A DNA stretch of 63,933 bases, filler included, from Eremomyces bilateralis CBS 781.70 (lineage: Eukaryota): NCBI GenBank assembly GCA_010015585.1. It is 6 parts of 6 records of this genome, joined end to end, with 100 filler letters (N's around TTAATTAATTAA, not from the genome) between each part and the next. Parts side by side here need not be neighbours in the genome. Positions count along the whole stretch, not along the records: positions 38,638 to 48,825 come from ML975212.1; 5 more parts are not named here. One strand, given 5' to 3'. Numbering within the stretch: the first letter of the stretch is position 1; each line of letters starts with the position of its first letter. The notes under the pieces were generated by a model. It did no database searches. It was not told where the DNA came from and saw only the letters and a list, made by a program, of their open reading frames with translations. Shown piece after piece: positions 28,918-58,132 of this stretch. Both the position numbers and the translations under genes were made by a program.

Positions 28918-31699
28918 CAGGCTGGCTAATCGAGGCGTCGCGAGGCGTCGCGAGGGATGACTAAGCGCCTCGCCTCGCCTCGCCTCGATTGCATACTAAA
29001 CCGCCTCGCGACGCCTGCTGGAACCATGGTTGAGCGTACCAAAGATGAAATTCCGTAATCCTGTATGCCATACAGAGGTCGATATCACGGTGAGGAGGAT
29101 GGTAAAGACGGTGGTGGTGAAGATCGCATACTATATTCTCCTAGCTAGACTCCTCCTCCTCGTCGTCGTCATTATCCACCGCTAGATTCGCTTGTGAGAA
29201 GACGATCTTCTCGAGATCAAGATCACTAATAATACCATTTCTAAACCAATGCTGTAGACACACCAACTTCCTCAACGTCTTCGCGTTCATACGGGCTCTC
29301 TCTGTGTCCAGGAGTCGCCCACAGGAGGACCATATCCGCTCCATATCCGCGGCGGATGCTGGAGTGGCAAAAAGGTCCATAGCGATCCTATAGAGAGCTG
29401 GAAATCGCGTACGATTAGCAATCCACCATTCCATAGGGGCCTTCATCTTCTCCTGAGGCTCGTTGAGATATTCAGAAACCTCATCCACGGAGGAGATTTC
29501 CTGTGGTTCAAATCCAGGCCCCCAAGAACCTAAGAAGTCCTGGTAGGCGCTCCGCACGGTATGATCCGTTGACGAAGAGCTCTCTGGGACGGATATATCT
29601 TGCCGTAACGTGGCGACAGACTCACGTAATTTAGTAATGACTTGAGCCGTGCTAGGGTTTTTCGGTTCCTTGAGATCGAAGAACCTTTTCTTATATCGTG
29701 GATGAAGCAATACCGCGAGCATATACGCAGGAGTCTGCGGGTCCCTCATTTTAAGTTGGTATTTCATCGCCTTAGAGAGGGCTCTCTGTAGAGGCGATGC
29801 GAGCTCCTGGAGAACCGGTCGCCTCGGTATCTCCGCGATCAAAGAGACTAAATCTTTCACGATCAAGTGGATAACGAGGTAAGATTCGAAAAGAGCTCCT
29901 TCAGCACCATCCTCAGCGTTACTTTCTAGGATTTTGGAGCGAATAAGGAAGGGGTGGTAAATCGCTTGGAGCTCTTCTAGAACAGCCCAATCAGCCCCTG
30001 TAAGCCCCTGGAGAGAGGCGTGTCTTGCGCAGTACTGATCAATTGTAGCGCGTAAACGGAGAGCACGACTAATCGAGTCGTATCTTGTATTCCACCGTGT
30101 CTGGTTTTCACGGATAATACGGAGAGGCTGATCGCGACGTCGCTGAGATTGATCGACCATACCCTCTAAAATAGTGGTTTGGATCGTCAAGAACTCTTGC
30201 TCACGTTTCGAGCTACTTTTGATATGGGTAATGATAGACTTGAGGCGTTCAACGGAGACCACATCGACATTCGTTGGAAGCGTAGGACTTCGAAGATTCT
30301 GTCCTGGATGGCCAGGAATGCCACTGTCCTGCGTACATTGAAGGCCATCTGACTCGTCGTTGTCCGTGCCAGCCAAATGGTCGGTAGATAGCTGTTTGCA
30401 TATCAAATTAACGATATGACAGGCGCATCGTAACCGTTTTCCAGAGACCGGGATATTAGTAATATTTCCAAGCTCTTCTACCGCCGTGGTGTTATTATCT
30501 GCGTTATCAGACATCAAGTAAGCGATCCTTTCCTTGATCTTATACGCCTGTACGGTGTTTTTCATGATCCGTGATAGATTTCGCCCTGTATGAGCTCCTT
30601 GAACCTCTTCCACAGTGAGGAGGGTATTCCGTTGGCGTGGTGTTTCACCGCCGGAGATGAAATGGGCCTCGATACCAAAGAAGGGTATATCGGTCGCAGA
30701 CGTCCAGATGTCATACGACAACGATATCTTGCTGGATGCACGCGAAAGTGTATGGGACACAAGAACAAGGCATTCTTCGTATACCTTGGCCACCCTATTG
30801 TATACGGATTGGTGATTCTTTACTCTGAGCTGTGGATCTCCACCGCTCAAAGATTCCATCAATCCGTTGTGTGCCACAGAAGAGGCCTGGCGAAATGGTA
30901 TACCGTCGAGGATCACCCATTTTAAATACGCCGCATTGACATTCAAGAGCCCATTCCGGAGAGGCAGAGAATGGTGATGGAGAGCCCACGATTCACGAGA
31001 TCCAGGAGGGATTACCTGTGATCCACGGCTCAAGAAAGAGTGATCTCTTATAAGATGGTCTCGTGCAGACGACGTCGCGCCGACCCTATAGAGCTTTAAA
31101 TCGAGGTTGGATCGAGCCCTTCGCCAACAGATATAGCAGACCCAATATGGAATATCTTCCTCCTCGTCTACTCTGCGAGCGACGAATCCCCAGTCCCATA
31201 CAACGCTTCGCTTTCGCGGGCTAGATAAGCGATGATACTCTTTCACGAGGGAGAGACCGTATTCACGGAGAAACTCTGGATCAGGCGTGAAATCTCCTAT
31301 TCCGCCGGGGTCAGGAGCATACTCAGAAAAAGAGGAGGAAAACGATGGTAGAGACGACTGTAAAGACGACATATTGATATCGATTCTATACGTTGAGAGT
31401 AATCTTGATATTATACATATATTGACTTTGGATTTGACCAAAACCTCCTCAATATTCATGACTCCAGCTGGAATGTTTAATGAGCTCACCAAATCCCATA
31501 GAATCTGGGTCACATCCAGAAGATACGGACTGAGATGATGAAAGATTGGTAGAATAGGACCAAATGGGTCTAGCGAGACCTTTCCAACCCGCTTATTAAT
31601 TATCCGAAGATATACCGACTGCCTCGCGACGGGTTGATCGAGGAACGAGGCGAGGCGAGGCGAGGGCCTCGCGACGCCTCGCCTCGATTAGCCAGCCTG
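28918..31699 (-). mobile_element. Complete hAT DNA transposon with TIRs and 8-bp TSD
   Basis: TIR CAGGCTGGCTAATCGAGGCG / CGCCTCGATTAGCCAGCCTG. TSD CTCAATTG at 28910-28917 and 31700-31707. CGAGG subterminal repeats. Confidence 0.95.
29141..31513 (-). CDS. hAT transposase (intronless ORF; true start possibly Met at ~31372)
   Basis: BED-like finger (WVCYIC...ARDHLIRDH), SYDIWT, MSDNAD, CACHIVNL, TRWNT and the dimerisation domain WWIANRTRFPALYRIAMDLFATPASAADMERIWS. Confidence 0.92.
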   Translation of the reverse strand: MTQILWDLVSSLNIPAGVMNIEEVLVKSKVNICIISRLLSTYRIDINMSSLQSSLPSFSSSFSEYAPDPGGIGDFTPDPEFLREYGLSLVKEYHRLSSPRKRSVVWDWGFVARRVDEEEDIPYWVCYICWRRARSNLDLKLYRVGATSSARDHLIRDHSFLSRGSQVIPPGSRESWALHHHSLPLRNGLLNVNAAYLKWVILDGIPFRQASSVAHNGLMESLSGGDPQLRVKNHQSVYNRVAKVYEECLVLVSHTLSRASSKISLSYDIWTSATDIPFFGIEAHFISGGETPRQRNTLLTVEEVQGAHTGRNLSRIMKNTVQAYKIKERIAYLMSDNADNNTTAVEELGNITNIPVSGKRLRCACHIVNLICKQLSTDHLAGTDNDESDGLQCTQDSGIPGHPGQNLRSPTLPTNVDVVSVERLKSIITHIKSSSKREQEFLTIQTTILEGMVDQSQRRRDQPLRIIRENQTRWNTRYDSISRALRLRATIDQYCARHASLQGLTGADWAVLEELQAIYHPFLIRSKILESNAEDGAEGALFESYLVIHLIVKDLVSLIAEIPRRPVLQELASPLQRALSKAMKYQLKMRDPQTPAYMLAVLLHPRYKKRFFDLKEPKNPSTAQVITKLRESVATLRQDISVPESSSSTDHTVRSAYQDFLGSWGPGFEPQEISSVDEVSEYLNEPQEKMKAPMEWWIANRTRFPALYRIAMDLFATPASAADMERIWSSCGRLLDTERARMNAKTLRKLVCLQHWFRNGIISDLDLEKIVFSQANLAVDNDDDEEEESS

Positions 31700-38637: not shown

Positions 38638-38910
38638 TAGGCCTCGGATGGGTGCGGGTGGGTTGGGTTGGGGTTCTCTTGGCGTGCGGGTGGGGTGGGG
38701 TGGGGTTCTCCAAACCTGGATTCCCAACCCAACCCCACCCGCATGCCAAGCAACCCAAACCCAACCCCACCCGCAGGCAACCAGGGACAAACCCAACCCC
38801 ACCCCATGCCAAGAAACCTTGGGGGAACCGCGGGGTGGGGTTTTCTGCGGGTTCAACCCCAACCGCAAGATGGGTTGGGTTTCTTGGCGCATCTGATGGG
38901 TTTCTTGGCA
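38638..38910. repeat. Left TIR and G/C-rich subterminal repeats (GGGTGGGGTTGGG / CCCAACCCCACCC); mirrored at 45414-45676
   Basis: About 38790-38889 is a near-exact reverse complement of about 45416-45512. Confidence 0.9.
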
Positions 38911-39347
38911 TTATTAAAAGGGCTTTAGACTAGATTAGGCTAGTAGCATATAGAGAGAGAGATTCATACGCCCGTCAGGCCTCTCTGCGAGGCCCATGTG
39001 GGGAACTAGCTAGCTAGTAGCATATAGAAGATGTGGTAGTCAGATGTGGTAGTCAGATATGGTAGTTTAGTCACGCGGTATAAAATGTAAGTAGGAAGCT
39101 TTCTATTTAATTCTGGCTATAGAAGTTTATCCGGCGCATTAAGCAGGATCATTAATCTAAGAGTATACGATGCTCACTCACCCATCGTATACCCAAACCT
39201 GCGACTTGTTATTCGCCTTAACTGACAAATTGGAGAATTATAAAAACGCCATCCATTGACACCCATAACTCATGATATACGTTAAGCCATAACTAAAATA
39301 TATTAGTTTATATAATCATGGTAGGATTCAGACCTTACCTTCACGTT

Positions 39348-39889
39348 TTACTTTCGAGCGTGCTTCCTAACCGAAATGAAAGACCCGTCGCACAACCTTT
39401 CCACCAGCTCGATATCCTTCGCCTGGAGAGTTACGCGCTTGGCATGGATGGCACAGAGGTTGGAATCTACGGTGTGTTAGTTATGTGGTAGTCAGGAGGA
39501 AGTAAATAAAAACATACTCTCAAAAAGCTTTACAAGGTATGCTTCTGATGCTTCTTGGAGCGCCTCGAGCGCAGACCTCTGGAAACGATACCCTCCATCG
39601 TAATTGAAGTCACCTGAGATCTCGCGCACAAGTCGAGCAAATGGCAATTTCGGAATCAGCAGTTCGGTTGATTTTGCCAACTGCTTGATCTCTCGAAGCA
39701 CAGACACTTAGAGGTTTAGCTACTACTACACCGACTACTACACAGAAACTTACTGCCAGGACGTTTGAAGTATGCGCCAGTCTTCGTCTTCCTTACAGGC
39801 TTTCTCGAATTCGTAGACCGTTTCCTGGCTGGGGGGCGCTTTCTGCCAGGAGTGTGCTTTCCGCCGGGGGGGCGGTTTTGAGATGGCAT
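39348..39889 (-). CDS. Divergent histone H3-like protein (147 aa, 3 exons)
   Basis: Exons 39889-39754, 39706-39518 and 39466-39348 with GT-AG introns and CTAA-type branch sites. Product [147 protein letters not shown], a complete H3 histone fold. Confidence 0.93.
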
Positions 39890-40660
39890 GGTTATTCGTC
39901 GAATCGTTGGTAGAGTTATGACCGTATTGTTTGTTAGGTTTCGGTTGTAGAGAAGGCTAGGTATGGAGGAGAAAAAGGAAGGTAAAGAGAGAGGACTAGG
40001 TTGTTGGTTAGTCGACGTTGTTATGAGTAAAGGTAAGGTTTCTCACCAGGTTATCACTTCTGAAAATAATTCCAAGTCCTTTTTACCAATAACTCTGGCA
40101 AATCTTGATCGTTTTCGACCAAACGAAGTAATCTCAGCGTGGTAGTACTTGTGGTGGTCACCAAGAGCAATTTCCTCAAGATGGGAGATCTCCTAGGATA
40201 TATAAAAATTAGTAAGAAGTGAAAATTAATGTCGAAAGTGACATTCAAGTGGCTAACCGTCCTGCGAGCTTAATTCTACAAGATTTAAGCTTACTACTGC
40301 ATTCGAAGTGCGGTAGTATTCGTGGTAGTCGAGTTATGTTATAAAAGGAAGAAAAACGGGTGAGTTAACGAAAATATCGAGATTTCTAAGTGTTTTGAAT
40401 TTCTTCGTATTTCACTTCACTTATGAAAACCTAACCAAAATAAACTATCCCCCAAACAAAACCTTTACCAAAACAAAACTTTCCTCTTAATGAAACTTTC
40501 TTCCCCTTACCCTAACGCCTCCCAATCTTGATTATTTTCCATGCTAGTTACAAGATTGTAAGAGTTATTAATATTTCAAAAGTGAGAATCTCAATAACTA
40601 ACTTTCTGCTAGCTTCACCTATCCCATGATCCAGTGACCGGCAGTCTTAACGAGACGACA

Positions 40661-42090
40661 ATGACGGCTAAGCGGAAGGCGGTGGCCGATCTCTCTACCA
40701 ATGCGAATACAGCTCGCGAGCGAAAGCGTCGGGATGCCCGGGATGCAAGTCGCGTCGAATATGAGAACCGCAAAAAGGCTGATCAGACTGCGGTATCGCG
40801 CGCACGGGCAGCTATAGCGCTGTTACCAAATTTCAGGTCGAGTGGGACCGACAAGCGACAAGAGCTACTTCGTGTAGCGGTCGAACAAGTGACCAACGAA
40901 AGGTCAGTTATGTGTACCAGTCAATGTGGTAACTAGTATTTTTACTAACTAATCTAGGATTAATCGTGGAGTCCATCACTCGCTCCATCCCCTTGCGGCG
41001 GTCCCTGCGACGACTAGGACTGCGCAGGACCCAAAGTTATTTCTCAATAAGCTCTATCCCGATGCCGATAACGATAGCGATTGGGAAGATCTCCATGAAG
41101 ATATGGAAACTTCGGTCGATCAGGATTTCGAAATCCTAAACAGTATGCCCCTCCCGCCAACATTTAATTCGACGGATTTCAGGTTCTGGGCGGAATACAA
41201 GCGAACTGTTGCCAAATATGATTTCTATAATCGGATCGAATTGGGAGAATGGCGTCGCTTTACCAAACGATGGCAACGAGCACGAAAGGCGGTTCTATAT
41301 AAGAGCCGAGCTATCAACCGAGCGAGAACTTTAGACGGTCGGCTTAGCCTTGGAAAGCTATGGCTTCTGGTAGACACCGTGGAGATTTTGGTAAGTGTGG
41401 TAGTTTATGTGGTAGTCCTATACTAACCGCATTTAGCGATCGAGTGCCGAACTGCAAAGGCTGATCCGAGCAGATTGGCAATCTTTCGGCTTAAACGCCG
41501 AAGACCAAGATTGCGCAGAACTTGAGTGGATAGTTCGTAATGCCCCGGCGTTGGACGACTGGCTGTCATCTCCGGCGTTCTACTCGAAGGGTCATTTAGA
41601 TCTTCACCTCGTATGGCCGAAGCTCCCCTTCGCGATTCGATATTTTCTCGTAAGTTTAATGCGGTAGTCAGCGTGGTAGTCTCTTTTCGGCTTATTTGAC
41701 ATTTTAAATCAGAACCAGAGCGCCACTTTCTCAACGGCGCCTTTTGCGCACCAAATTTTCAAGGATCGACACGAGAGAGGCATTTTAATTGGGTTCCTCG
41801 CTTGGGCTGGTCGATACCAATATGAATTCCCCTTCCCGGCTTGCTTGTGGGATGCGCCTGATAACGATGAAAGATGGGGACTTTCTAAGATTAGCGACTC
41901 GAAGACGGCTGCCATGATGTATGATGGTTTTAAACTCGTCTTTAAACCGCCTGGGAACTGCGAAGCCCCCCCTGACGCCTACCGCATCGACTGTCCAATT
42001 GATAGAGATGCGATGATCGGAGATGGATACTTGCTATCGCTCCGCCCTAACGGTGAGCGAGGGAACGCTATTTGGAAAAGGAGGATGTGA
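40661..42090 (+). CDS. Hypothetical protein (421 aa, 4 exons), transposon cargo
   Basis: Exons 40661-40902, 40958-41390, 41437-41649 and 41713-42090 join without stops through canonical GT-AG introns. Basic helical N-terminus, acidic patch (DADNDSDWEDLHED) and Trp-rich C-terminal domain. Confidence 0.8.
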
Positions 42091-42379
42091 CAAGGCATCT
42101 AGCTATTCGATTGATAGGCTGGAACATTGACTACCACACCGACTAGTACGCCCTTCGCAGACATAGTTCTGCAGCATATGAATAACGGATTCGGGCAGAA
42201 TATGGGGGGCTGGTGGACCAGGAATTAATATACATTCTGCTTCAACCCATTTCCTGTGATGAATTGATAATATTCTATTAAGTACTTCAATCACGATAAT
42301 ACATTACTGCCATACTGACTACCACACTGACTACCACTTTTTATCATTACTTAAACCTGTCTTTTACTCTATTTCTAAG

Positions 42380-45281
42380 ATGGCCTCTTTATACACTGAT
42401 TCAGAGCCGACTGAGCCCCAGTCAAGCTTTACCGAAGCAAGGTCTGCGATCGAATCGTCCGACGGAATCGGTGTCGATGGTCTCCGGCAGTATACGATCA
42501 AAAACACGACATATTATGTTGTTGACCGAGATAACCCCGCGCCGTTTGACGATTGGTGGAAGAGAACCCAATTCTGCCTTAGGAACAAGGCTAGAGACCC
42601 TGACAAGCGGTTTAAGCCAACGTGGGATAGAAAAGTGGTTCGTTCTGATTACTGGTCCTACTTCGAAGAAATCGCCGAGTCTGCTACAGGGGTTGTTAAG
42701 ATCCATTGTATCCGCTGTGGTTTTGTTGGGGGCCACCCAGCTGTAATCACTGAGAGGCTAGACGGCAGTCTCGGATCACGTACTGGCAATTCGACAATGA
42801 AGGCGCACCTTCGGTCAGGAAATTGTATGCAGAAAGCTGATAACAAGGGCCTAACCCAGTTGACATTTCACGATATTACCGATCCAAGGCGCAAGGTAAG
42901 AGACTACTATATGAACTAGTATATACACTTTCCCTAATAGAGTTTAGGCTAGAGTTGATAGGACCCGAGCTGCCCAATTCCTTGAGGGACAACGGGTTAC
43001 CTCGAAGCATTTCTTGGATTGTCTGGCTCGAATGATTGTTTCTCGGGGTATCCCTATGAACTTCTTCGAGGATCCTGAAGTCCAGCGGTCCTATCTCTGC
43101 CTAACGACTACTGAACCACCATTTAGTAACCCAAAGAGTCTGCGGAATCGGATCTTCACTCTCTATGAATCCGCGACGAAGGCAACTCGGGATGATCTTG
43201 CCCACCCTGATAGCATCAAACAGAAAATTGGTCTCGCGGTCGATGGCTGGTCCGCAAAGTCTGGCCGTACAGGCTATCTTGGAATTCTCGCCTATTGGAC
43301 CTCGACGGACATGAAATGGCATGAGGCGCTTTTAGCGTTCACGCCAACTGAGGCTAGGCATTCCGGTCGGGACCTAGCGGAGATGATCATGCAGACACTA
43401 CTCAAGTTTCGAATTACTGACCGTCTACGCTCAATCACTGCAGACAATGCTTCGTCAAATGGCACGATGGTCGCGTCTATCAACGACGAGTTGAAATTTC
43501 TGTTGTCGTCACATGGAAGCTTAGACCCGGTCGTATCAATCCCTTGTATCTCCCATGTTATTCAGCTGGTCCAGGGAGAACTCCTCAAAGGCCTCAAGTG
43601 CGTGGCGGAGAATTCGGAGATTATCCGAAACTGGGATGAAAAGGAGTTTGTGAGGGAGCAGCGCGCAATTGCGTCGTATGGGGCGGTGCCAATTACACTT
43701 TGGAAGGTGAGTCTCTACTCCTTGTAAAATGTGGTAGTCAATGTGGTAGTCATTACTAATATAGTCTAGGCTCGACAGACCGCTAAACACATTGTGGCAT
43801 CGGAGAAACGACTGAGAGATTTTCTTAAGATCCAGCAGGAGCTTATCGACCAGGAACACCCGACCCTGGACAAACAGGAGCTCTTCTGGGTTAGCCTGCT
43901 CCGGCAACCCCTGCGTCCACTACAAGACGTCAAAACACGATGGGACTCGACTACGCAGATGCTTGTTCGACTCCGCATTCTTCGCCAACCCCTTGACCGT
44001 TACTGGCGTCAGGTTTCGAAGCAGTCGATGGCCCTCGATCCTCAACAATGGGATATCATCGAATACCTTATTGATATGACCGCTCCACTAAATGCATTTA
44101 CGCAGTCAATTGGCAGATCGTCGTCCCCATCAATCCACAGAGTCTACACGATCTACGATACTACATTCGGCCATCTTGAATCTACGATCGATAGACTTAA
44201 GAAGAAGCATGCTTCGTGGAAGATTAGCCTCAAGGAGAGCTTGGTGAATGCCGTAGAGAAGTTGAAGAAGTACTATAGCAGGACTAGTGTTTTTACAGCT
44301 CTTGATGAAGCATACGCGTTCTCTTTCCTACTCAGTCCTAGGACACGAAATACTGCTTTCACTTCATCGGCTTGGAAAGGGAGGGCTAATAACCGGGGAC
44401 AAAATTACCGAACAGTCTACATGGGGAGACTGCGGGATCATTGGGAGGAACACTACAAGGTTGACAACCCAACCCAATCAGAAGAGGGAGCAGCTTATAC
44501 ACGCGGAATTGACTATGTGCGTCAACGGTTGCATCAAGATGTTCAGCCCACCGAGGGTTCAAACTCTCGATCAATGGACGAGCTAGCAAGATATTTTGAC
44601 TCTTGTAAGTACATATTCCCCTTTATTCATACTCCGATCTCTTACTAATCTTTTAATATAGGCTCGTCAAACAATATTGAACCTCTCGAAGCTTGGCGCG
44701 AGAATGGAAACTACATAGCCTACCCAACAGTTGCTCGGATGGCTCGCGACTACCTTTGTTCTCCGGCAGCATCCGTTGGCGTCGAGCGCCTATTTTTCCT
44801 TGCTCGCTGTCAGTCAGAGTTCAATCGGGAGTATAAGAGTGAAACACTCGAGGCGATCATGGTGGCCAAGGCGAGGTTGAAGCTTGACTTTCAGATAGAA
44901 TCCGAGCGTCTCCAAGAGCTGGAGGAAGAGCTAGGTGATATCGGTGATGCTGATACGTCTACGCTAGACACACTGGTTATAGAATCGGACACTCGTAAGA
45001 GGCATACTAATAGTATCCTGCGCGCGACGGGTGAAGGGGAAATTCATTTGATCAGCGACGGTGAAGATAGTGAGGATGATGTTGAGGATGACGGGAGGGA
45101 TAGCGATCCTAATACTGGGGAAGATAGGAGGGACGCTGATCAGAGCGATGGTCTAGGGGAACCAGACGAGACACTAGATGAGTTAGGTGAAGATTACGAT
45201 ACAGCTGGAGTAGCAAAGAGGACACGAAGTAGTACTATGGCAAGTGAACCTCAAGACCGTTCGAAGCGGAATAGGTTATAG
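42380..45281 (+). CDS. hAT transposase (909 aa, 4 exons)
   Basis: Exons 42380-42895, 42948-43706, 43770-44604 and 44662-45281 splice in frame. BED-like finger (YWSYF...CIRC...MKAHL), AVDGWS, TADNAS, CISH, TRWDST and YPTVARMARDYLCSPAASVGVERLF. Confidence 0.93.
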
Positions 45282-45676
45282 ATAGGTTTTCTTCTATTAG
45301 AGTACTTTTGAATGAAATTAATTTCTTTCCCTTGACTACCACACTTGACTACCACATATGACTACTATATTTAATCCCCTATTCTATCCTACAACCGGAT
45401 CGTACCTCTAGTTATGCCAAGAAACCCAACCCATCTTGCGGTTGGGGCTAAACCCGCAGAAAACCCCACCCCGCGGTTCCCCAAGGTTTCTTGGCATGGG
45501 GTGGGGTTGGGGCGGGGTTTCTTGGCGTGCGGGTGGGGTTGGGGTGGGGTTTTGAAATATTGGCTTCCCACCCCAACCCCACCCGCAAACCGGCGGGTGG
45601 GGTTGGGTTTGGGTTTGCCAAGAACCCGCACCCAACCCGTTTTTTGCGGGTTGAACCCGCACCCATCCGAGGCCTA

Positions 45677-46096
45677 GTTGAAGGCACCGAATAAAGTAAC
45701 GAGCGCCCGTGGGCCATCGGCGGCGCCCAGTGCCGTCAACGCTGCTGCCACGACAATCTGAAGTCCCAGACATCCATTGATGAGGAAAGAAAAAATCTTA
45801 TATTGCTGTTTTGAGGTGGCTTCAGAGTTGACAATGCGTGCGTAGATTCCAATGTTTGATGCGGGTCGGCGAAAATACGCTGTGGCCGTGAGAGTCGGAG
45901 CTTCGCTGATTCCAAGGATGGTTCGGAACGCCGTGAGTTTGTCGGTGTGAGGGATCAAACGAGATCGTTCCCTTCCCAAAGGTGCGCTGTGTTCGGCAGG
46001 CCTGCTTTCGTTTCCGTCTCCTGTTCCCGTATCGTCCTCTGCAGCAGTTGAGAGGGGGCCTGGATCTTGGCTTTCAATATCATTGCGAGTAAACAT
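45677..46096 (-). pseudogene. SLATT-like (fungal 2TM) membrane protein gene truncated by the hAT insertion
   Basis: ...YKIFSFLINGCLGLQIVVAAALTALGAADGPRALVTLFGAFN runs directly into the TIR-supplied TAG. The pattern matches the fungal SLATT two-TM domain as recalled, not searched. Confidence 0.65.
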
Positions 46097-47198
46097 TGAG
46101 CTCAAAGCAGCTCTGCTTCGTGCAAGAGTTTAGTGGACTGTTGGGCTTCGCATAGGCTTCCACCTCAAGGTTTTGGCGCATCTGAAGCGGTTCTTTGGAT
46201 AAAACCTTTCCTTTCCTCCTTTGACTTGGGGATCAATCCCTTTTGAAATAACAACAAGCCCTTCAGCTCACCATTGCTCAACCGTGCATGTTCATGTTCA
46301 TTTCGGGAAGGATCATCAATACAGTGCCGGGACCCCATGTCATTTTCTGTTCATCGGTCTGGGTCGTTGCATACGATTGGCGATGGAATTATTACTTGAG
46401 CAGGCCGAGGCGAGCTACAACTCGAATGAGAAACCTTTGAACCCTTGCGGTCTACCAGTTCTGAAATAAGTATTGCTGTCGCATTAGCGTGCGGGTGACA
46501 GGGTGTATAAGCCCCACAACCTCTTTTATGGCGGCTCCGTCCGGGGCTAGGACCCTAAGCGAACCCCCTGCCACCCGGAAGGGGGGGGAATGTGCTTGTA
46601 TGTGCCCTCTACGTCCAGTAGTTTGATTGGACTAAGAAACTATTGATATGGATCATGAGATACTAAATGCTTATGAATTCTCAAGATCTTCATGGGCGAG
46701 ACGTCCTCGAGCCGGGACGATATCTGAAGACAAAACATCGTTATCGAACGACACCCTACTTCGCAGAGAAAGGCTAGAGGCATGCTCTACCCAGCACACC
46801 TTTTCGTATTTATTGCCAGACAAATCTGACGCTCTTTGGATCAACCTTTCGAACCGGAGATGCACCATAACTAATGTTGGTATACCCGCACCACACGCCC
46901 AATATTGTTCCATATATTGGGCGCTGGCCACCCCAAAGTACATACCACCCCAACATACACAGAATGATCCAGCGAAAGGAGATTTGCCATTTAACGCCCA
47001 AGATAAAGAATTTGCATACTAATTAATAATAGAATCATTGCAAAGCCATCGAAACTACTAATCCCTCGTGCTAAAGTAAATTTAGATCGCGTTGGGCGGG
47101 TTTTGCATTACTCTGAAGTTCCACCCTCCACGGAATGAAAGTGGTATCACTAACTTCAATCTCTAAAAACACAAGATGTCGCCAGAAGAATATACGAA

Positions 47199-48568
47199 TT
47201 AAACCGTAGGAGGATGGATAAACTGTGGTTGGGGGCCCTGGCGAGCTTTTTCGCGTGTTTTTCGGTCTTTCTCACGTTTCCTGACCTTCGTAGCCTCTTT
47301 CCTCTCCTCCTTCGCCTGCTCCTTGGCTAGCCTCTCCGCCTCACGATTATCTACAACCTTCCTACAGTCTCCTACCGTGAGCATACCTCCTTGGAATACG
47401 CGTCGTCTCCGACCCGCTTTGGCATTAATCAGTTTCATCTTTTGCGCGAGCTCTGAGGTGGCGAGATCGTGCATCGCCTTCTTCGCTTCAAGAGCCTGGG
47501 TCTGGGCACCTCGTGATAGTTGGTCAACGCGGTGGAGGATTTTCATTGGAACACCCTCTTCCTCGAGTTCCTTGTAGATGATATTCTTCAATCGTGAGGT
47601 CGTTCGCACAGTGGTGGGAGTCTTGAGCTGTGTCTCCTCTGGATTCCGCTCCGGAGGAGGAGTAAGGAGCCTCTCTACATCGATCGATGGAAGTGGTGGG
47701 CGGACCTTATCAAGTACGATATCAGGATTCCACGGATAGAGTCCTGCCTGGCGAAAACCGCTCCGGATCGTGCCCTCGGTCAGGGCCTCTTTCCGTACAT
47801 CACCAATCGCATCCAGAAACTCTAATTTCCCGTACTCCGTGATGCCCTCGCGGACAGCGTATTCATACCGCTTCCCATGATAGTGCTTCATCGGCTGGAA
47901 ACACGAGAGGTCGAGAGGTTGCATAATATGTGTAACGTGAGGAGGGAAGGCGATCGGGAAGATCGCGTGTTCGTAGCAGAAATCTACAAAAAGGGTCGTT
48001 TTATGGCACCCATGCCCATCCAGGAAAAGCACTCGTTTTTGACTGGTATGACCACGACCTTCCGGTCTCGTATGGCGCTCAAAATGCTGTATCCAATCGA
48101 ATGCGAAGAGGTCGTTATTGAACGCTGTATCCGTCGCACCAAGGAGGATATCATCGTCGATATTGATCTCATCCTGGACCCAGCCTTCTAGGATCCATTT
48201 CCCCTTCATGATCAAAGAGGCGGGAATCTTCTTCCCTAGGGCGTTCACTCCCTCCACGATGGTGGCAGACTCGCGGTTCACAGGCACTGCGATCCTGTTA
48301 TAATTATCGTTTCCGGTATCCCGTACGAGCACGATCATCTTAGGATTACCAACCCCGATCATGAACCCCGATTCATCCATATTCCACATATTCTCCGGTT
48401 GTATGTCGTGTAGGTCGAGCCACGCGCGAGTCTCCTCGAACCAGTGCTGGAGATGATCGAAATCCTCCGCCTCGCGTCGCTTTATATCTCGTGGTCTCGA
48501 TGATATAGTTTTGATCTCAGGGTGTCGCATCAGATACCGGGCAACCCAATGTTGCCCAAGAGGTTTAA
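47199..48568 (-). mobile_element. pogo/Fot1-type (DDE_1) transposase, 5' part cut by the TTAA element
   Basis: PLGQHWVARYL, WNMDESGF, LFLDGHGCH, FPPHVTHIMQPLDL, SGFRQAGLYP. Confidence 0.9.
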
Positions 48569-48825
48569 GGGTGACGGGTTGGTCTAGATTGCTTTTATAT
48601 ACACGAGGCAGATTGATTTATATACAGTAAGATAAGAATAGGTTTTTAAAGTGTGAAAAGAAAAAAGAGAAGGAAAAGAAAGATGTAAAAGAACGTAGGC
48701 GTTGAGGTCCGGGGGGGTAGGAGGGCGGGGAGGAGCTTGAGGGGCGGGTCCTGGTCGTAGAGGGCTAAAGGTCTCGGTATGCCTCGTTTTGGGTCCCTGT
48801 ACCGTAGCGATCCAGCTCTCAGCCT
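48569..48825. mobile_element. Second copy of the terminus of the unclassified TTAA-associated element
   Basis: Near-identical to 25829-26085 and begins right after TTAA at 48565-48568. Confidence 0.8.
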
Positions 48826-48925: not shown

Positions 48926-51877
48926 CATCTGCTCCCTTATCTAAGAGCAGCGCGACAATCTCTTGATGGCCTCCTGATGAGGCGGCTTGGAGAGCGTTGC
49001 CGTAGAGGCCGCCCTGGGCACCTACATCTGCTCCCTTATCTAAGAGCAGCGCGATAATCTCTTGATGGCCTCGAGATGAGGCGGCTTGGAGAGCGTTGCC
49101 GTACTCGCCGCCCTGGGCATTGACATCTGCTCCCTTGCCGATAAGATCTCGCGCAGGCGCTACGAGCCCAGTGAAGCAAGCATAGTAGAGCTTGGAACCT
49201 CGTGGAGGACCTGGGTCATTATCCCAATGCTTATCAGCCTGATACAAGCGAGCCCATCGCTGGAACGTCACCTCCTCTTCTACGAACCTGACCGTCCCTC
49301 GAACTATATCTTCTGAAGCCTGAGCCAACGCAGCAAAGCCTGTCCAGACTTCCGCTGCAAATCTTGCCATCGGAAAATCCCGCTTGATCTTTTGGTTGCT
49401 ACCATTGATGTCCGTAAGATATGTCAAGCATGTCTTCGTGATGGAAATGCTGGCAGTCGAAATCTTGAACTGATTCTCCCCAAGAAGGTACTCTTTCACA
49501 GAAAAGTGGGCCAAATGCAGCTCTTTATCGGTGGCGTGAACGACTGTCGCTAAGCCGGGACAGTAGTCTAAAACAGCTGTCTCGCAAAATAGTCGACGAT
49601 TGATATCAAATCCTTGCGACCCGTTTTCAATCTGTGTTGCTACTACTTCTTTCGCCTCGACCAGCTTGAGAGGTTGCTTGGAGTGCACCAGGAATTGTAG
49701 GAGCCGTATCGCATCGTTTTTGAGATCTATCGGTATGCGTTCAATCATGCGTCGGTACGTTTCTTCTAGGTTCCGCGGCAAAGATGCAAGAGCTTTCGCC
49801 ATGTCCGCCGCGTGACGACATCGAGCTAGGCTGTCCAACTGACAGAACGCCCATCTAAACCTACGCAGAGCGTCAGCAAACCATCAGCATATTAATTGAA
49901 GCAATAATATCTTACATCCCGTCGGCTCCGTCGCCAACCTTCCTCCGAATCCTCTCAAGGAGATCCTGGGACAAGTGCTTGTTCCGAAATTCACGTCGTT
50001 GCGCAAGCTGTGCTGCGACGTACGATCGGATATCAGCGTTGACAGAGTGCTTGTCGAGTGCCAAGCTGTTTTCCTCGCCTATTAACGAGGGAATTTCGCT
50101 CAGGAACTCGGCTTCAGGCCGACCGGTACAAATCAGCTGGACGTGGCCCAGCTCTGGCCTGGAAACTACGTCCTGGGTCCAGAGGAGTAGTTCGCGCCTC
50201 GTTGTCGACTCGTCCAAGGCGTCTAGAACGATAGAGACCTTCGTCTGGACTGCGAGAAACTTGAATAAAACATCTGAGAGCGCCTTTGTCCCAATTTGGT
50301 CACGGCCATCCTGGTGTGCTTGGAATGAGGCGTCAAGAAGGCCTGCAGAGGCACTGCGGCCTCGGTAGAGTTGGAAAGCAAGCGACCGCAGCATGCCATC
50401 CACAGTCTGCTTTTTCGTGTCGCCAAAGTCAAAGAAGAAGTTGAGGATAAGACGGTCGTTTCCCTTCTCAAGATGATCCAATATAGTTGCGCTGAGAACC
50501 GTCTTTCCACATCCCGCGAGACTATACAACCACAAATGTCGACGCGACCCTGAGTGCCACTCCTGGAAGGCCGGGTTTTCTAGGAGCCACGTACCTGTCC
50601 CCTCATGGCGGAGCTCCCTCGCGTGGTTGGCGTTTGTAGACGGATCGGAGGGGCGAAGCCAGCGCTCGATCTTCTCGGTACGAAGGTCGGCCTGGATGGA
50701 ATCAGTGGCTATTTTCGCTATACCTATGGTCTGCTGCATACTATCGATTTTTTGTTCAACTAAGGCAGGTCAGAATGTGCTCGACGTGATATTATTACTC
50801 CGCCTTGTTTATTCGCCAGGCCAGGGCCCTGTCGGAGGATATGGATCACTAACCTGACTGAAGCATTTCTAGCGCTTTTTTGGTCTCTTGGACCTCCGCG
50901 ACCGGCACGTATGCCAGGAGCTCCTTAGTATACGCAGCGGCGGTGGCCGAGGCGTAACGTTGCCATCGATCGTTCTTGTGGGAATCGGCGTAGTCGCAGA
51001 TCCCTCGGATCACAAGACAGGGAAAGTGGTTCATCAGGCCGGCTGCTTCCATCTCAAAGCAGATGCAATCCTCGCCGACGTCGGCAACAATCCGATCGCG
51101 CGCAGCGGCGTCTTTGACCAGCGTGTTGCCGGATGCGATGGTCCCGTAGTGGATATCGGGGTCGGTGGTGTCTCGAGGATCGCGTTGAACGTCGCCAGCC
51201 GCGTCGCAGCCCCGACAGTCCGGCCCGGAGACGTGGCCACTAGAAGCTTTGAAGAGGCGGTCTTTGTGGAAGCCCTGGTGAGTATAGCCAGGACTTATCT
51301 TGGATCTCTTGCCCATCTTCGGGTATTTCTCTAACATCTGTTGAAGGAAGCAGCGAACTTTGGAGTCTTTCCGCTCGTGATCGGCCTGGATGCTGGCAAG
51401 CGCGTTGAGGAGGACCGTCGGAGGCCGTCCGAGGAAGCCTTTACGCTCACGCCTGTCACCAGGCTTTGCTTTGATCAAGTCGTACTGGCAGACGCCGCCT
51501 GTGGTCCCATCAGGCTGGCTCACGACAATGTCGCCTAGCCGGATATCGCGGTCATCGTCCGGTCGTGCGATGCCGCCGCCTATGCCGACCAGAAGACAAA
51601 CACGGATGGATGGCAGAGAGGCAAGCAGGCTCGAGGCCGTGGTCGCAGCCGAGGTGGTTCCATAGTCTCCGGCGGCAAGACCGACGATAACGATGTTGTG
51701 CTCTCCCATACGACCCCATGTATAACGGTTCGCGTCGATTTGGTGCCTAGCGAAGCCAGTTGGAGGCGCATGTTCTTCGTCGAACATCGCTTCTGCAGCG
51801 GCCCGCTCGATGGGAAGAGCTGCGATCCAGGCGACCGCATAGGAGTCGGGGCTGTCGAGAGAGTTGCGGGATGCCAT
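48926..51877 (-). CDS. Fungal NLR: PNP_UDP (nucleoside phosphorylase)-NACHT-ankyrin repeats, 3' truncated by the contig end
   Basis: Exons 51877-50854, 50759-49916 and 49860-48926. PNP motifs LLVGIGGG, FEMEAAG and IRGICDYADSHKN. NACHT Walker A SLAGCGKT, Walker B VLDALDE and ADGMFRWAFCQL. ANK repeats GADVNAQGGEYGNALQAAS. Confidence 0.93.
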
Positions 51878-52421
51878 GGTGTGGAGGGAAGCGCGCCAGG
51901 CCGGCAGATGGGCGGGTGGAATGACAGGTTATGCGGTTCGCCTAGGTCAGCGAAGAAGCTAGAGTTGAGTCGCCCTTGAAGGTCAAGGACGACCACAGCA
52001 GCGACAAAGAAAGGCTATTATAAGTTCTGGTCCAAGGCTGCGTTCGTTTTCCGGTCACTTCGCAGCTTGTTCTCCGCGACCGCAGCCTTGCGCTTTGCGA
52101 CCTGACCAGATCGCGTGCAGTCACATTTTAACGCAGTCCTCTAATATGGCGCCGAACCACAGGACGAAACTAACTCTCGATCATACATTCAGTAACGGAT
52201 ATCGAGGACTGCTGGAATTTCCCGTATCAAATCGATCCGCATCAAAGTCAACCTCTGCAAACTCTACTTTGATCCTACACACCTTTTTAGCCTTAGCCCC
52301 CACCGGTGCGGAAACTAGAAACCAAAGCCGAGCAGCACATTAAAAGAAACTTTTCGTAGCGCGGCTACAGTAAGAGGCGTTCTCAGCAAGTCCAAGTAAC
52401 GACAGCGTTCCCGTTGTGACT

Positions 52422-52439: not shown

Positions 52440-55400
52440 TGTCACAGAATATCTGTGTTTTATTGACGTATCATTGGCGTATCGTTGGCGTATCACCACT
52501 GTCTCATCTCATATTCGATTCTATGCCTTCTGTTTCCTTTATCGGGGAAAGGATCATCATAAAAAACCACATAAATAGCTGCAGGAACAGCCTGTTTTCG
52601 TAGGATGGGGGCGAAGAGAGGATCAAGTTAAATCTATCTATTGCTCTTTTGGAATCTAACGGGGTTTTCCACCGTGTCGCTGCATTAATCACCGGATTGA
52701 GCGAAACCGCTATTTATCTCACAGTTATGAGCCCAATTATCGCTTAAAGCACCATAGACGACATCAACAGATAGTTCTATCGTGTCTTTCCCACTTGTTC
52801 TCTCAAATTATACCGACGTTCGCTTATTTGAAAGTCTATCGTTTCATCTGCAATGTCTACCTCTGCAAACGACCTCGCAGTGATCGTCAAGGCTGCTCCA
52901 CCTCTCAAATCCCCAGCGGATTGGCGTGACTGGTACAACTTCATCAAGTCCCACGGAAATCGAGTAAGAGTATGGAAGTACATCGACCCTACGACCGAGG
53001 AAGATCCCGAGGAACCCCAGACATACAGCAAGGAGGAATACAACAAATTGACGGAGTACGACAGAGACCAGATCACTCAATCGAGAAAGCTCGAGGAGAA
53101 TGTTCACAAAGCGAAAGTCAGGATAGGAGATATCATCTTCGCAATCGTACCTGAGGAAGCGAGGCGTGGTTTCTCTATCAACGATACACCACGTCAAATG
53201 CTCTCCTACCTCAAGTCTCGATATGGACCTGACGAAAACCAGTACGAGGAACTGGTGGAAACTGCCTGGGAACGCCTTCGCGTTCGTCCAAAGAGGATGA
53301 AGCTACAAGACTGGATCCTCGAATGGAAACACTTCAAGGAATACGCAGAAGAGCTAGGGCAGAAAACCACCTATACTGATCTGAAGCTTATCAGAGAACT
53401 CATCAAGATCTGTAGACGTGAAGATCTTGACCGATTTTCAACTCGATCTGAGGATGCTATATGGGTTGCAAGGGAACCAGGAGGTAATCCTGCACATCTC
53501 AAACTGAATCATCACATCGAGCTCTTTCTAAAGACGTACCCCATGGAGATACCGAAGCCTACCAAAGGGGCACTTTTCGCAACTCTCCAAGGAGAGACTC
53601 CAGAGCAGACGTCTCAACCATCACAGATGCCCCCTGCAGCGGCATCACCGTCGTCGACTCCCGTCCCCCCTCAATAAGAGAAACGAGAGAAGACTCTCCC
53701 AGCCTATGTGTGTGGGGAGAAACACCTGTACAGGCGTTGCCCGTACTTCAACCGAAATCTTAGACCTTCAGGTTGGAAACCGAAGTCTGAGATCAAAAAC
53801 CAGATTATATCTCACTTGAAGGCTAATCCAGCGGCCGACAAGACTCTACGGAAGGTCCTTAAACGAGAAGGAATCAGCCTTCCTGATTGGTTCCCGGCGG
53901 AATCATCCTCTACCACATCTACAACTTCGGAATCGCGTGAGGATGGTTCCTCACACGCGTTCGCTACGCGAGTGATGGAAGAATCTCAGGCGTTCGCCAC
54001 ACAGGCGTTCTCCGCAGTTGAACATACAGAGACCAACGAAGGAAGGCCATATAACCAGAGTTTCTATATGGACAACATGGCTTCTCACCACATATGTGCA
54101 GACATTACACGTTTCACGAACTACGTGTCTACAGATGGTACAATGAAGACCGGAGACTCGTACTCATCCTATGTGGGCACAGGAGACGTCAAGATCCCTG
54201 TGGTAGGAAAGCACGGGAAACAGACATTCATCACTATCCTAAACGTCCACCATATTCCGGGTTTCCACATCAATATCGTTTCAGCCAGGATGTTCCGAAG
54301 GAAAGGCTATGTACTTGATGAGTATTCCCAGGCAATCCGCAAGCTTGACGATAGGTCTCTCCTTTGCCATATGTATCTTCGCGATGAGTATTGGACCTTC
54401 ACGAGCGACGTATTGGTCCCTGTACAAAAGGGAATCACATTCGCGACACGATCGTCTCAAATCTCTATCTCAACAGCTCCTGAGGAGGTGTGGCACCGTC
54501 GGATGGGACACATTGGCACAGACAGCGTGCGAAATCTGGTAGGATCTGTACACGGTGTGTCAGTTGCCACAAACCTTCCATCGCATCCAGGCTCACGGAG
54601 TCTATGCGAAACATGTACGGTCTCTCAGATGAAAAAACAAATCTCAAGAGTTCCGCAGTATCGCGGTACTCGCCCGTTTGAAAAGATCCACGGAGACCTC
54701 ATCGCCTTTAATACAGGACTCTCAGATGAGACATGGGTGCTTCATTTCTACTGTGGATTCTCACGCTTTCATTTTGTCTATCCCATTCCAAATCGACGCA
54801 AGGAGACCATCTCACGATGACTCACTAAGACCCTTAACACTATAAGGACCATGGGCTATACCGTCCAGTTTCTTCGCTTTGATAATGAAGCTGCGATCGA
54901 GTCTGACCAAGTTATCACTATCATCGAGGACCACGGAATTACCCTAGAACTGTCTGCGCCGAAAACTCCAGCACAGAACGGGCCAGCGGAAAGATCAGGA
55001 GGTATACTTATTACCGACGCACGCAAAATCTGCGTAGACTCTCGTCTACCAGAAAAGCTGTGGCCCTATTTCGTGAAACACGCAGGATATCTCCTGAATA
55101 GGACTCCTGTGCAATTCCTTCAGTGGAAGACCCCGTACGAAGCTGTATTTGGTAGGAAACCAAATCTCTCACATCTCAGGATGATAGGATCAAAGGCCTA
55201 CGTCCTAAAGACAGATATCGCAAAGAAGGACAAGATGGAACCACGAGCCTCAATTGGTTTCCTTCTTGGGTATGAAGCTACAAACATCTTCAAGGTCTGG
55301 ATTCCAGGCGTTGAGAGGGTAATCACATCGCGAGATGTCCGTATCGACGAGACTATCCGGTACGATCCAACAATTGATGGGAACTCTACCCTCACCCCTC

Positions 55401-58132
55401 ACGATCGGTCTGCGCTCCAGGCATACCTTGATGATGTTGAAATCAACACACGCGCTTATATCGACGCTTTCGAAAATACCCCGGTGGTGGGTAATCACCA
55501 ACCACCCGCTCTCTCAGACCCAGGACTGTCTAAGCCTGCGGGAGAAATCGCGCCCGACACACGGATAGACAAGCCAACTGCAGATTCCCGCGGATCTCCT
55601 TCTCATCTTCCTACCCCCTCATCATCGAGGAACCCAACACCTGCTCTACCTTCTCCCAATCTTGCCTTATCTGGGAGGAATGAGGACCATTCTGGCGAAC
55701 CAGACGTTCCACCGGACACTCTCATCGCAAGCCAACAGTCGGTGGAAGGGCCCACCTTACAAGTCGGTGGCCTAGACATCACCAGTACGACGGACGCGGA
55801 TGAGACCAGAGGAGGTGGTACGCGCGATGATCATACAGGGTCTACCAGACGATCCTCATCGACACCCTCAGCCATCGAAACAACTATACCGGCCCTCCAA
55901 GAGGAAGAGGAAGAGGAAGAAGAGAGGCAAATTCATGAGCAGATCGCTTCAGATATTGCCTCCCCCGCAGGAGCCTATCAAGAGAACAGACAAAGGAAGA
56001 GTGCTCGCGAGAAACGCCCATCTCAAAAGGCTAGGGACGCGATGGAGACAAAGGCCTTTAAGACCCAGACCAGACATGCCTCACGCAAACAGGCGCATCT
56101 CACGATGATGCTCAATGCGACCCAATTGGCCCCATTGCTCCATGCGTTCGCAACCACACGTACGGATCGCATTCACCGGGATAATCTTCCTCCTCCGCCA
56201 AAACATTGGGGAGAAGTCCTATCACGCCCAGACTCGCACCACTGGATCCAAGCATCGAAAGGAGAAGTCACTGTTGTGATAAGAAACGGCACGTTTGAAC
56301 TCGTACCCATACCAAAGAACGATCCTGTGATTCCTCTCAAATGGGTCTTTACGTACAAGTTTGATGCCGACGGATATCTCATCAGGTACAAGGCGCGAAT
56401 CTGCGTACGAGGAGATCTCCAGGAAATTCACGACCGGGACGCACTGTACGCTGCGACAGGCGCATACACCACCTTCCGAATCCTGATGGCCCTCATCGCG
56501 GCCTTCGATCTGGAAGCAGAAGGTATCGACGCGGTAAACGCATTTACCAACTCAATCCTCAAAACGAGAGTATATGTGGGTATTCCACCTGGATTCGCAC
56601 AGCCTGGATATGCGTATCTCCTACGACGTGCCTTGTACGGACTTGCGGAGTCTCCAAAGCTTTGGATGGAAATCGTCAAGTCCCTCATGAAAGAGCTTGG
56701 GATGGTGCCCTGTGGGGATGATCCATGCCTCTTTATATCGGAAGATCCCTCCAAACCACTCATCGTCTTTGTCTATGTCGATGATTTCCTTATCATCGCC
56801 TCGCGGAAGCACAAAGTTCTTATCTCTCACTTTAAGGAAAAGTTCATGGAGAAGTATGAGGCACGGGACCTAGGACCTGTGACGCAATTCCTTAACATGC
56901 GAATCGTACGCGATCGCGAAAACCGCAAGATATGGGTATCTCAGGATGCCTATATTAGCAAGATCGCTACACGGTTTAATCTTCTCGATCATCAGCGTCA
57001 TCCTCTTACTCCCCTCTCCACATCGTTCGATGAACATGAGCCAAATCCCAACGCAACGAAGGAACAGGTCACGGGATACCAGCAGCGCATAGGATCGCTC
57101 ATCTATGCTGCGGTAGTTTCACGCCCAGACATCTCCCACGCGGTGAGTCGTCTGAGCGAGTTCAATACACGACCTAGTCCTGAGCACCGACGAGAGGCTG
57201 ATCGCTGTATCTCCTACCTATACGGAACTCGTTTCCATGCGATTGAGTACTCTTTCGACTCTTTTGACTCTAACCTATCGGTGTCTGCACGACCTTTCCG
57301 GTCCTATACAGATGCATCTTTCGCAGACGACCGCACCACAAGGAAATCGTCTCAAGGATATCTCATCTCACTTTTTGGCGGCCCTATTGCTTGGCAGGCA
57401 TCCAAGCAAAAGAGTATCACTACCTCTACCACCGAAGCGGAACTCCTCGCCCTCTCTTATACATCTAAGGAGGTGATAAGGATGATGCGCCTTTTCCGCG
57501 ATCTTCGATTCGATCCGGAGTGTCCTATCGTCGTTGAATGCGACAACGATCAAACTGTCGGTATCATCACCAAATCCATGCCCATTCTCACCACCAAACT
57601 GCGCCACGTGGACATTCATCAGTTTTGGTTGCGTCAGGAGGTGGAACGGAAGAACATATGCGTGGAATGGATTCCGTCAAACGAACAGGTGGCTGATGGT
57701 CTCACGAAGATTCTCTCTACCGCGAAGCACCGTGTTTTCTTTAACCAGATAGGTCTGCAGGACATCTACGCACTTGTTGGAGGATCAAAGGGATTGTGAG
57801 ATCTATACAATCCAGACATCCCCTTCAACGGTGATATCTGAGGAGGTGTGTCACAGAATATCTGTGTTTTATTGACGTATCATTGGCGTATCGTTGGCGT
57901 ATCACCACTGTCTCATCTCATATTCGATTCTATGCCTTCTGTTTCCTTTATCGGGGAAAGGATCATCATAAAAAACCACATAAATAGCTGCAGGAACAGC
58001 CTGTTTTCGTAGGATGGGGGCGAAGAGAGGATCAAGTTAAATCTATCTATTGCTCTTTTGGAATCTAACGGGGTTTTCCACCGTGTCGCTGCATTAATCA
58101 CCGGATTGAGCGAAACCGCTATTTATCTCACA
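52440..58132 (+). mobile_element. Young full-length Ty1/Copia retrotransposon
   Basis: 284-bp LTRs at 52440-52723 and 57849-58132, apparently identical. TSD CCTCG on both sides. GTTATGAGCCC follows the 5' LTR and the PPT GAGGAGGTG precedes the 3' LTR. Confidence 0.97.
52853..57799 (+). pseudogene. Copia gag-pol in a single frame with two in-frame stops (TAA 53675-53677, TGA 54818-54820)
   Basis: The three ORFs share one frame. CVCGEKHLYRRC knuckle, protease MDNMASHH, WHRRMGH, rve (QNGPAER), RT YVDD and RNase H YTDASFA. Confidence 0.9.

Follow-up and report, generated by a model that had tools for sequence, protein, structure and literature searches.

The 63,933-nucleotide stretch of DNA analysed here (the window) comes from the soil fungus Eremomyces bilateralis CBS 781.70 and contains, at positions 38638..45676, a complete hAT DNA transposon of 7,039 bp with three genes, one of which encodes a relative of histone H3 that we call H3L (39889..39348, minus strand). 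The element is intact and transcribed and is probably autonomous, and H3L is very probably an H3 paralogue that it carries as cargo. The reading that we favour as a whole, with a rough probability of 0.4, is that a captured histone alters nucleosomes and blunts silencing based on methylation of lysine 9 of H3 (H3K9).

To our knowledge, hAT-borne fungal histone genes have been in print since 2013 and nobody has tested their function. The present case extends this known phenomenon to a new lineage, the Eremomycetales, and is not a new system. Manning et al. 2013 (PMC3538342) described an H3L-carrying hAT element of about 5.6 kb in Pyrenophora tritici-repentis, and Dhillon et al. 2019 (PMC6710886) described H3 copies in 9.5-kb hAT elements of six Mycosphaerellaceae. 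The Eremomyces member appears whole and is unusually intact, with both terminal inverted repeats (TIRs), three open and spliced genes, and RNA support for every intron. Most known hAT-borne histone copies have been killed through RIP (repeat-induced point mutation), and the Eremomyces copy is a practical start for asking whether a transposon alters nucleosomes against silencing.

The hAT element and its three genes

The element is bounded by a left TIR of 22 nt, TAGGCCTCGGATGGGTGCGGGT (38638..38659, plus strand), and a right TIR (45655..45676, minus strand) that is complementary to it at 22 of 22 positions. This perfect inverted pair is the sole match of its kind in the window (0 expected by chance). 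Assignment to the hAT group is further supported by the dimerisation domain PF05699 (Dimer_Tnp_hAT), which lies in the last exon of the transposase gene (E 1.2e-09). The scaffold that holds the H3L gene (38638-48825, 10,188 bp) starts exactly at the left TIR, so that neither a left flank nor a target-site duplication is visible; the right flank reads GTTGAAGG.

Inside the TIRs, a left subterminal repeat region of G/C tracts (38752..38888) is an inverted copy of a right, G-rich one (45416..45551), with 88% identity over 137 nt. More broadly, the subterminal regions 38660-38890 (C-rich) and 45416-45650 (G-rich) consist of GGGTGGGGTTGGGG-type repeats that are locally palindromic and could form G-quadruplexes. 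An Rfam search over 38638-40700 returned no score near the gathering threshold, only hairpin-like microRNA models on the subterminal palindrome.

A second repeat is spread through the whole element. The 9-mer GTGGTAGTC/GACTACCAC occurs in 13 exact copies within 39033..45355, all of them inside the element, where 0.23 are expected in the window. With at most one mismatch there are 18 copies in the element, all in non-coding sequence although 4,440 of its 7,039 bases are coding. They are mostly paired, 12-13 bp apart, and lie in introns of all three genes, in untranslated regions (UTRs) and, in inverted orientation, in both subtermini. As judged from this distribution, the paired motifs are probably transposase-binding sites that have been spread through the element via its introns.

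The H3L gene has three exons and encodes 147 amino acids, from an ATG at 39889 to a TAA ending at 39348. Exon 1 (39754..39889) provides the ATG and a basic tail of 45 residues; exon 2 (39518..39706) encodes helices alphaN and alpha1, a lengthened loop 1 and most of alpha2; and exon 3 (39348..39466) encodes the end of alpha2, alpha3 and a basic C-terminal extension, followed by the TAA. Both coding introns have GT..AG borders and are in phase 1, the first (39707..39753, 47 nt) at codon 46 and the second (39467..39517, 51 nt), which holds one GACTACCAC, at codon 109. A 3' UTR intron of 46 nt (39293..39338) begins 10 nt past the stop, and a 5' UTR region (39996..40256), with introns at 39996-40046 and 40192-40256, extends as far as the 5' exon of the central gene, which runs the opposite way. 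The spliced product is letter-for-letter the database protein P0005, which NCBI lists as a "histone-fold-containing protein" of E. bilateralis CBS 781.70. The central gene (40661..42090, plus strand) lies head-to-head with H3L and has a 5' UTR intron (40558-40612) and four coding exons; its product of 421 amino acids is identical to database protein P0380. The transposase gene (42380..45281, plus strand) has four exons and encodes 909 amino acids, including an N-terminal zinc-finger region and an acidic C-terminal tail.

Three sequencing runs of one organism contain the element. Two of these, X1 and X2, are DNA, and the third, X3, is taken to be RNA since the 12 GT..AG splice joints occur in it and in neither DNA run (0 of 12 in X1 or X2). 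In one X3 contig, 2,555 nt long, five introns of the minus strand are missing: both coding introns of H3L, a single 3' UTR intron and a pair in the 5' UTR. Four introns of the central gene are spliced out of it too, and its joints match the predicted H3L intron borders exactly (39707-39753, where 39706 is joined to 39754, and 39467-39517). Another X3 contig (2,636 nt) lacks the three transposase introns. Once the RNA-supported introns are removed, all three open reading frames (ORFs) are open, at 147, 421 and 909 amino acids. The preliminary description of this DNA, made from sequence alone, had named the lack of a transcript among the outcomes that would refute its reading; the X3 contig spliced at both H3L coding introns shows that there is one.

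The preliminary description had also placed the histone within a transposon, and the gene does lie between the 22-bp TIRs of the hAT element. That H3L might instead be a host gene, either the genome's centromeric H3 (CenH3) or another H3 variant, merely standing beside a transposon is scarcely credible. It is placed 710 bp inward from the left TIR, with the subterminal motif pairs of the element on either side; its promoter region is divergent and also serves the element's central gene; identical H3L and identical central proteins occur together on two contigs; and, as regards a CenH3, it is without the tryptophan at position 84 (W84) discussed below.

The arrangement of the genes also bears on a reading in which H3L is a cofactor of transposition and, with the orphan 421-residue protein or the acidic tail of the transposase, assembles or marks chromatin at the element or its targets. 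The divergent transcripts of H3L and the central gene meet or overlap, head-to-head, within 40257-40557, their 5' exons merging in one RNA contig, and the P. tritici-repentis element has the same gene trio (PMC3538342). The acidic tail that closes the transposase is about 100 residues long, and an acidic patch occupies residues 115-140, approximately, of the central protein; either might bind the very basic H3L. Set against this, the central ORF shows no homology to any chaperone or to anything else, its sole database match being itself, with no Pfam family and with a best Atlas feature score (0.77) and structural template-modelling score (TM <=0.34) that are both within noise; nor is there any other sign of contact. 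We consider a cofactor role unlikely. A 9-mer with KLPFA that is common to H3L and the central ORF is a chance match (E 4.6).

Beyond the right TIR, an ORF on the minus strand (45677..46129) carries a SLATT_fungal domain whose match to the 121-position profile breaks off at position 55, precisely where the element has its right end. Because the domain stops at the element boundary, insertion into a gene is suggested, and this ORF is probably the gene concerned. The insertion would then be recent, to judge from the truncated SLATT_fungal ORF and from the identical H3L protein on two contigs. The H3L and central proteins are each recorded, in identical form, on two contigs, the longest of which measures 18,296 bp against the 10,188 bp of the scaffold here; a second copy of the element is therefore probable.

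Two further observations concern the element's representation in sequencing runs. In the DNA runs, contig depth over a segment of about 52 bp at 38953-39004 is some 15-fold that of the remainder (13,615 against 884 in X1). The segment adjoins many kinds of flanking sequence and has the direct repeat CTAGTAGCATATAGA on both sides. It resembles a short dispersed repeat of very high copy number, or else a tiny insertion; it has no Rfam match, and 38940-39030 does not fold better than shuffled sequences. Separately, a DNA run from another study that is labelled as a different organism (X4, organism B) contains 41% of the element's sampled words (39343-45452), with 17 of 18 contigs at an identity of at least 99% to the element and a depth of only about 4-5. 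These matches could reflect cross-contamination, a close relative or horizontal transfer.

H3L between canonical H3 and CenH3

Homology searches and structure prediction both place H3L in the H3 family. The Pfam Histone profile (PF00125) matches residues 19-133 (E 1.9e-32), and the best 60 of the 177 matching PDB sequences in HMMER are all named histone H3 (112-116 bits). An AlphaFold2 model built from 110 aligned sequences has helices alphaN at 46-57, alpha1 at 68-77, alpha2 at 89-118 and alpha3 at 124-134, with a predicted local distance difference test (pLDDT) of 65-87 in the fold region. The top Foldseek matches of this model are nucleosomal H3 chains; one nucleosome chain of CenH3 matches about as well as H3, so the search does not tell the two apart.

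Residue changes were read from the HMMER alignment to solved H3 chains and are given in canonical H3 numbering. Those named in the preliminary description are all seen there: Q68 is replaced by A (LPFARL for LPFQRL), loop 1 is longer by two residues through a GG inserted after D81 (DFKTD--LRF in H3) while F84 is kept, and T107 is replaced by S next to D106N (FENSNLC for FEDTNLC). The C-terminus is basic, as had likewise been described, and has 14 residues after ERL against five in H3, an extension of nine. Further changes from canonical H3 are R40F, Y41K, R53Q, R63P, K79N, S86R, G90E and S/G102K, and five near-invariant residues are altered as well (T45M, A47V, Q55A, R128E and R131C). K56, K64, K115, T118 and K122 are kept. 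The changes cluster at 68, loop 1, 86-90, 102 and 106-107, by which chaperones reportedly distinguish H3 variants (work on HJURP, Scm3, DAXX and UBN1), and some of the changed positions are presumably sites of DNA contact or modification.

The tail comprises 45 residues, of which 15 are K or R and eight are P. It is without ARTKQTARKS, so that the contexts of K4 and K9 are absent, and it holds GGK (9-11) and ARK (21-23, within PARKRS), all as first described. Taken alone, the tail resembles neither the H3 tail (E 18-73) nor the tails of two fungal CenH3s (E 0.26 at best) to a significant degree, and these two "remnants" may therefore be chance; where the HMMER alignment does run into the tail, its posterior probability is low. 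The preliminary suggestion of a histone that cannot be methylated at K9 does not follow from the sequence, as an ARK motif remains.

The criteria for CenH3 set out by Malik & Henikoff 2003, as quoted in PMC4359364, are an extended loop 1 and the lack of a Gln (68/69), a Phe (84/85) and a Thr, whose position is printed there as 118; 107 is the numbering of the preliminary description. H3L has the extended loop and lacks the Gln, but retains the Phe, and it lacks the Thr only if 107 is meant. Five fungal CenH3s were inspected, namely P0303, P0366 and those of P. tritici-repentis, S. nodorum and P. graminis (PMC3538342, Tables S10/S11). W84 is present in all five, in agreement with its description as usual in fungal CenH3, and so is a longer loop 1. 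Q68 is absent from three of the five (kept in P. tritici-repentis and S. nodorum) and T107 from two, the other three keeping it. The loss of Q68 and T107, offered alongside the long loop as CenH3 hallmarks, is thus a weak mark in fungi, while the loop holds throughout the five and in the quoted criteria. The most constant mark of fungal CenH3, W84, is the one that the H3L sequence lacks. Elsewhere in the H3 family, among 109 other hits in a set biased towards the query, A68 occurs in 20, S107 in seven and P63 in eight.

Relative to fungal CenH3s of the hH3v/Cnp1/Cse4 type (P0366 from Exophiala, P0303 from Neolecta), H3L is similar in its longer loop 1 with GG before an aromatic-R-aromatic-Q motif, in a small residue at 68, in a tail without significant likeness to that of H3 and in an altered C-terminus. 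It differs in having F84 rather than W, no QPGDP-type motif in the tail, a basic rather than Gly/Trp-rich C-terminus and a location in a transposon. Relative to canonical fungal H3 (P0352, P0039), it shares the whole fold, 51 of 60 highly conserved columns and a tail of nearly the same length (45 residues against 44); the differences are the missing K4 and K9 contexts, K79N, Q68A, the two added residues in loop 1 and the C-terminal extension of nine. Across one set of fold columns, the identity of H3L is 67.4% and 65.2% with the two canonical H3s, and 62.6% and 64.8% with the two CenH3s; the CenH3s are themselves 76-79% identical to the H3s. At the seven columns that separate the H3 pair from the CenH3 pair, H3L is H3-like at two, CenH3-like at two (the GG) and like neither at three.

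The phylogeny that had been suggested as a check was run with H3-family hits. A maximum-likelihood tree of 60 rows, drawn from single-domain hits of 100-200 amino acids (18 canonical H3s, with further canonical ones dropped, nine W84-type sequences, 32 others and H3L), leaves H3L unplaced, and the approximately unbiased (AU) test does not reject a clade of H3L with the fungal CenH3s P0303 and P0366 (p 0.38).

These data bear directly on the suggestion, also made at the outset, of a centromere-histone mimic: a protein derived from CenH3 or converging on it that would use the Scm3/HJURP route and steer the element to centromeres or shelter it there. The GG lengthens loop 1 where P0303 and P0366 also have GG, E90 and a basic residue at 102 are common to several W84-type sequences, position 107 is S, the tail cannot be aligned to that of H3, and the clade with fungal CenH3 is not rejected by the AU test. 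A68 is, reportedly, of the residue class accepted by HJURP-type chaperones (Hu et al. 2011). Against a mimic, F84 is kept where five of five fungal CenH3s have W; KSTELLI, the DF of loop 1, Y99 and E105 are H3-like by eye; the basic C-terminus does not resemble those of the CenH3s inspected; the fold is no more identical to CenH3 than to H3; and A68 and S107 turn up in many H3-family hits that are not centromeric. Moreover, the H3L of P. tritici-repentis has S68 and C107 with a loop 1 of normal length and an ARTK start, which indicates that such losses recur in H3-derived transposon copies. The CenH3-like traits of H3L (loop 1, A68, S107 and the unalignable tail) are real but not decisive, and a centromeric mimic appears very improbable. 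From F84, KSTELLI, the DF of loop 1 and Y99, we lean modestly towards an H3 rather than a CenH3 as the donor.

Captured histones in other fungi and the possible role of H3L

The nearest published parallel is the P. tritici-repentis element (PMC3538342), which has the same gene layout and is smaller (about 5.6 kb against 7.0 kb). Its H3L, like that of Eremomyces, has lost Q68 and T107 and kept F84, shares R86 and E90 (by eye, Table S10) and fits neither canonical H3 nor CenH3; Manning et al. placed it in neither group and considered that it may have drifted. The two proteins nevertheless differ in detail. That of P. tritici-repentis has S68, C107, a loop 1 of normal length, an ARTK start and insertions in the tail, whereas in Eremomyces the first eight residues are unrelated, loop 1 has the added GG and the C-terminus bears the basic extension. 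Counted by hand in Table S10, the two folds agree at about 50 of 89 residues, a lower figure than either protein reaches against canonical H3.

The 120 best matches to H3L include no P. tritici-repentis protein. The TIR and the 9-mer motif of the Eremomyces element are absent from 24 of the 31 supplement files of PMC3538342 and from two supplement files of PMC6710886, including the consensus file. With an identity below that of either protein to canonical H3, and with TIR and motif absent from these supplements, common descent of the cargo is not established; the sequences may represent independent captures or long, fast divergence. The Mycosphaerellaceae element (PMC6710886) is likewise a Dothideomycete hAT with a TIR of about 20 bp and H3-derived sequence. 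Its H3 copies, which number in the hundreds, are intron-less, were read as a captured transcript and have all been killed by RIP, whereas the Eremomyces gene has two coding introns and is intact and expressed. Among the matches listed in literature searches, there was no paper on this gene under the species name and none on hAT-borne histones after 2019, one 2021 review apart.

When H3L is compared with its family in an alignment that takes in 110 out of 127 eligible hits, it differs from the consensus at nine of 60 columns conserved at >=90% and at 19 of 29 variable columns (Fisher p 4e-6). This avoidance of conserved columns, the open frame, the retained splice signals and the presence of a transcript together speak for purifying selection acting on the fold, and on this sequence evidence we think it rather likely that the protein is under selection.

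The contrary account is that the histone gene was transduplicated into the hAT element as a neutral passenger, is transcribed from the element's promoters and has no role, its odd residues being drift. H3L sits on a very long end branch (1.3 changes per column, where the median is 0.19), no relatives of H3L are known, and the five near-invariant positions listed above have changed; Manning et al. read their H3L as possibly drifting (PMC3538342), and all the captured Mycosphaerellaceae copies are dead (PMC6710886). Neutral divergence of 30-40%, however, should bring stops or frameshifts and changes of core residues, whereas the H3L ORF is open, both coding introns are spliced with their signals kept, a transcript is present and changes avoid the conserved columns. 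A passenger is a possible but not a probable explanation.

If H3L is instead a captured histone that acts on chromatin, as we favour, its retention of 51 of 60 conserved columns would imply that it still pairs with H4 and can enter nucleosomes. The surfaces that have changed would be those of chaperone recognition (68, loop 1, 86-90, 102 and 106-107), DNA-end contacts (R40F, Y41K, R53Q and R63P) and modification sites (no K4 or K9 context, and K79N). From these changes it would follow that H3L is probably deposited by a non-canonical route and forms looser nucleosomes without the usual H3K4, H3K9 and H3K79 marks. The most likely benefit to the element would be a blunting of H3K9-methylation-based silencing, a step that we regard as doubtful when taken by itself. 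H3L has lost tail sites relevant to silencing, and its chaperone-recognition surface is changed.

Several observations weigh against the favoured reading. Because a histone acts in trans, the element could be the sole beneficiary only through some targeting step, of which there is no evidence. The ARK motif persists in the tail. The contrast between conserved and variable columns may partly reflect which columns vary in any H3, and the branch length of 1.3 also fits drift. Searches of 5.8 billion clustered proteins, of 1.84 billion representatives and of metagenome contigs gave no relative closer than ordinary H3. The exhaustive search of the representatives returned 14,986 hits, 23 of them at <=1e-30, which comprised only H3L itself and ordinary or multi-copy H3s; in the metagenome scan for H3L, 296 pattern stretches matched and 0 were confirmed.

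A bolder version of the favoured reading would make H3L a "stealth" histone. Its rewritten chaperone patch (A68, the GG in loop 1, R86/E90, K102 and N106/S107) would free it from the usual deposition pathways, and the orphan partner or the CenH3 route would load it onto the element or its targets as nucleosomes without K4, K9 and K79 marks, with recurrent captures of H3 by hAT elements that lose 68 and 107 as convergent adaptation. The losses at 68 and 107 are common to the unrelated-looking H3L of P. tritici-repentis, which hints at convergence. We think this version rather improbable; if true, a DNA transposon would be actively editing its own chromatin to escape heterochromatin.

Remainder of the window

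The window consists of small scaffolds joined by spacers of 44 N, TTAATTAATTAA and 44 N at approximately 14.9, 28.0, 38.6, 48.9 and 58.9 kb, and runs of N span 12429-58959. Nearly all of its pieces are transposon sequence. Besides the H3L element, we find a Ty3/gypsy-type element (15126-20398), copia-type elements (8922-10694 and 53678-57796), DDE_1 elements (47202-48617 and 60172-60987) and a second intact hAT ORF (29144-31687), which is distantly related to the first (22% identity). Finally, adjacent ORFs on the minus strand at 49915-51928 have PNP_UDP_1 (phosphorylase-like) and NPHP3_N/NACHT domains, the architecture of fungal NOD-like receptors (NLR-type).

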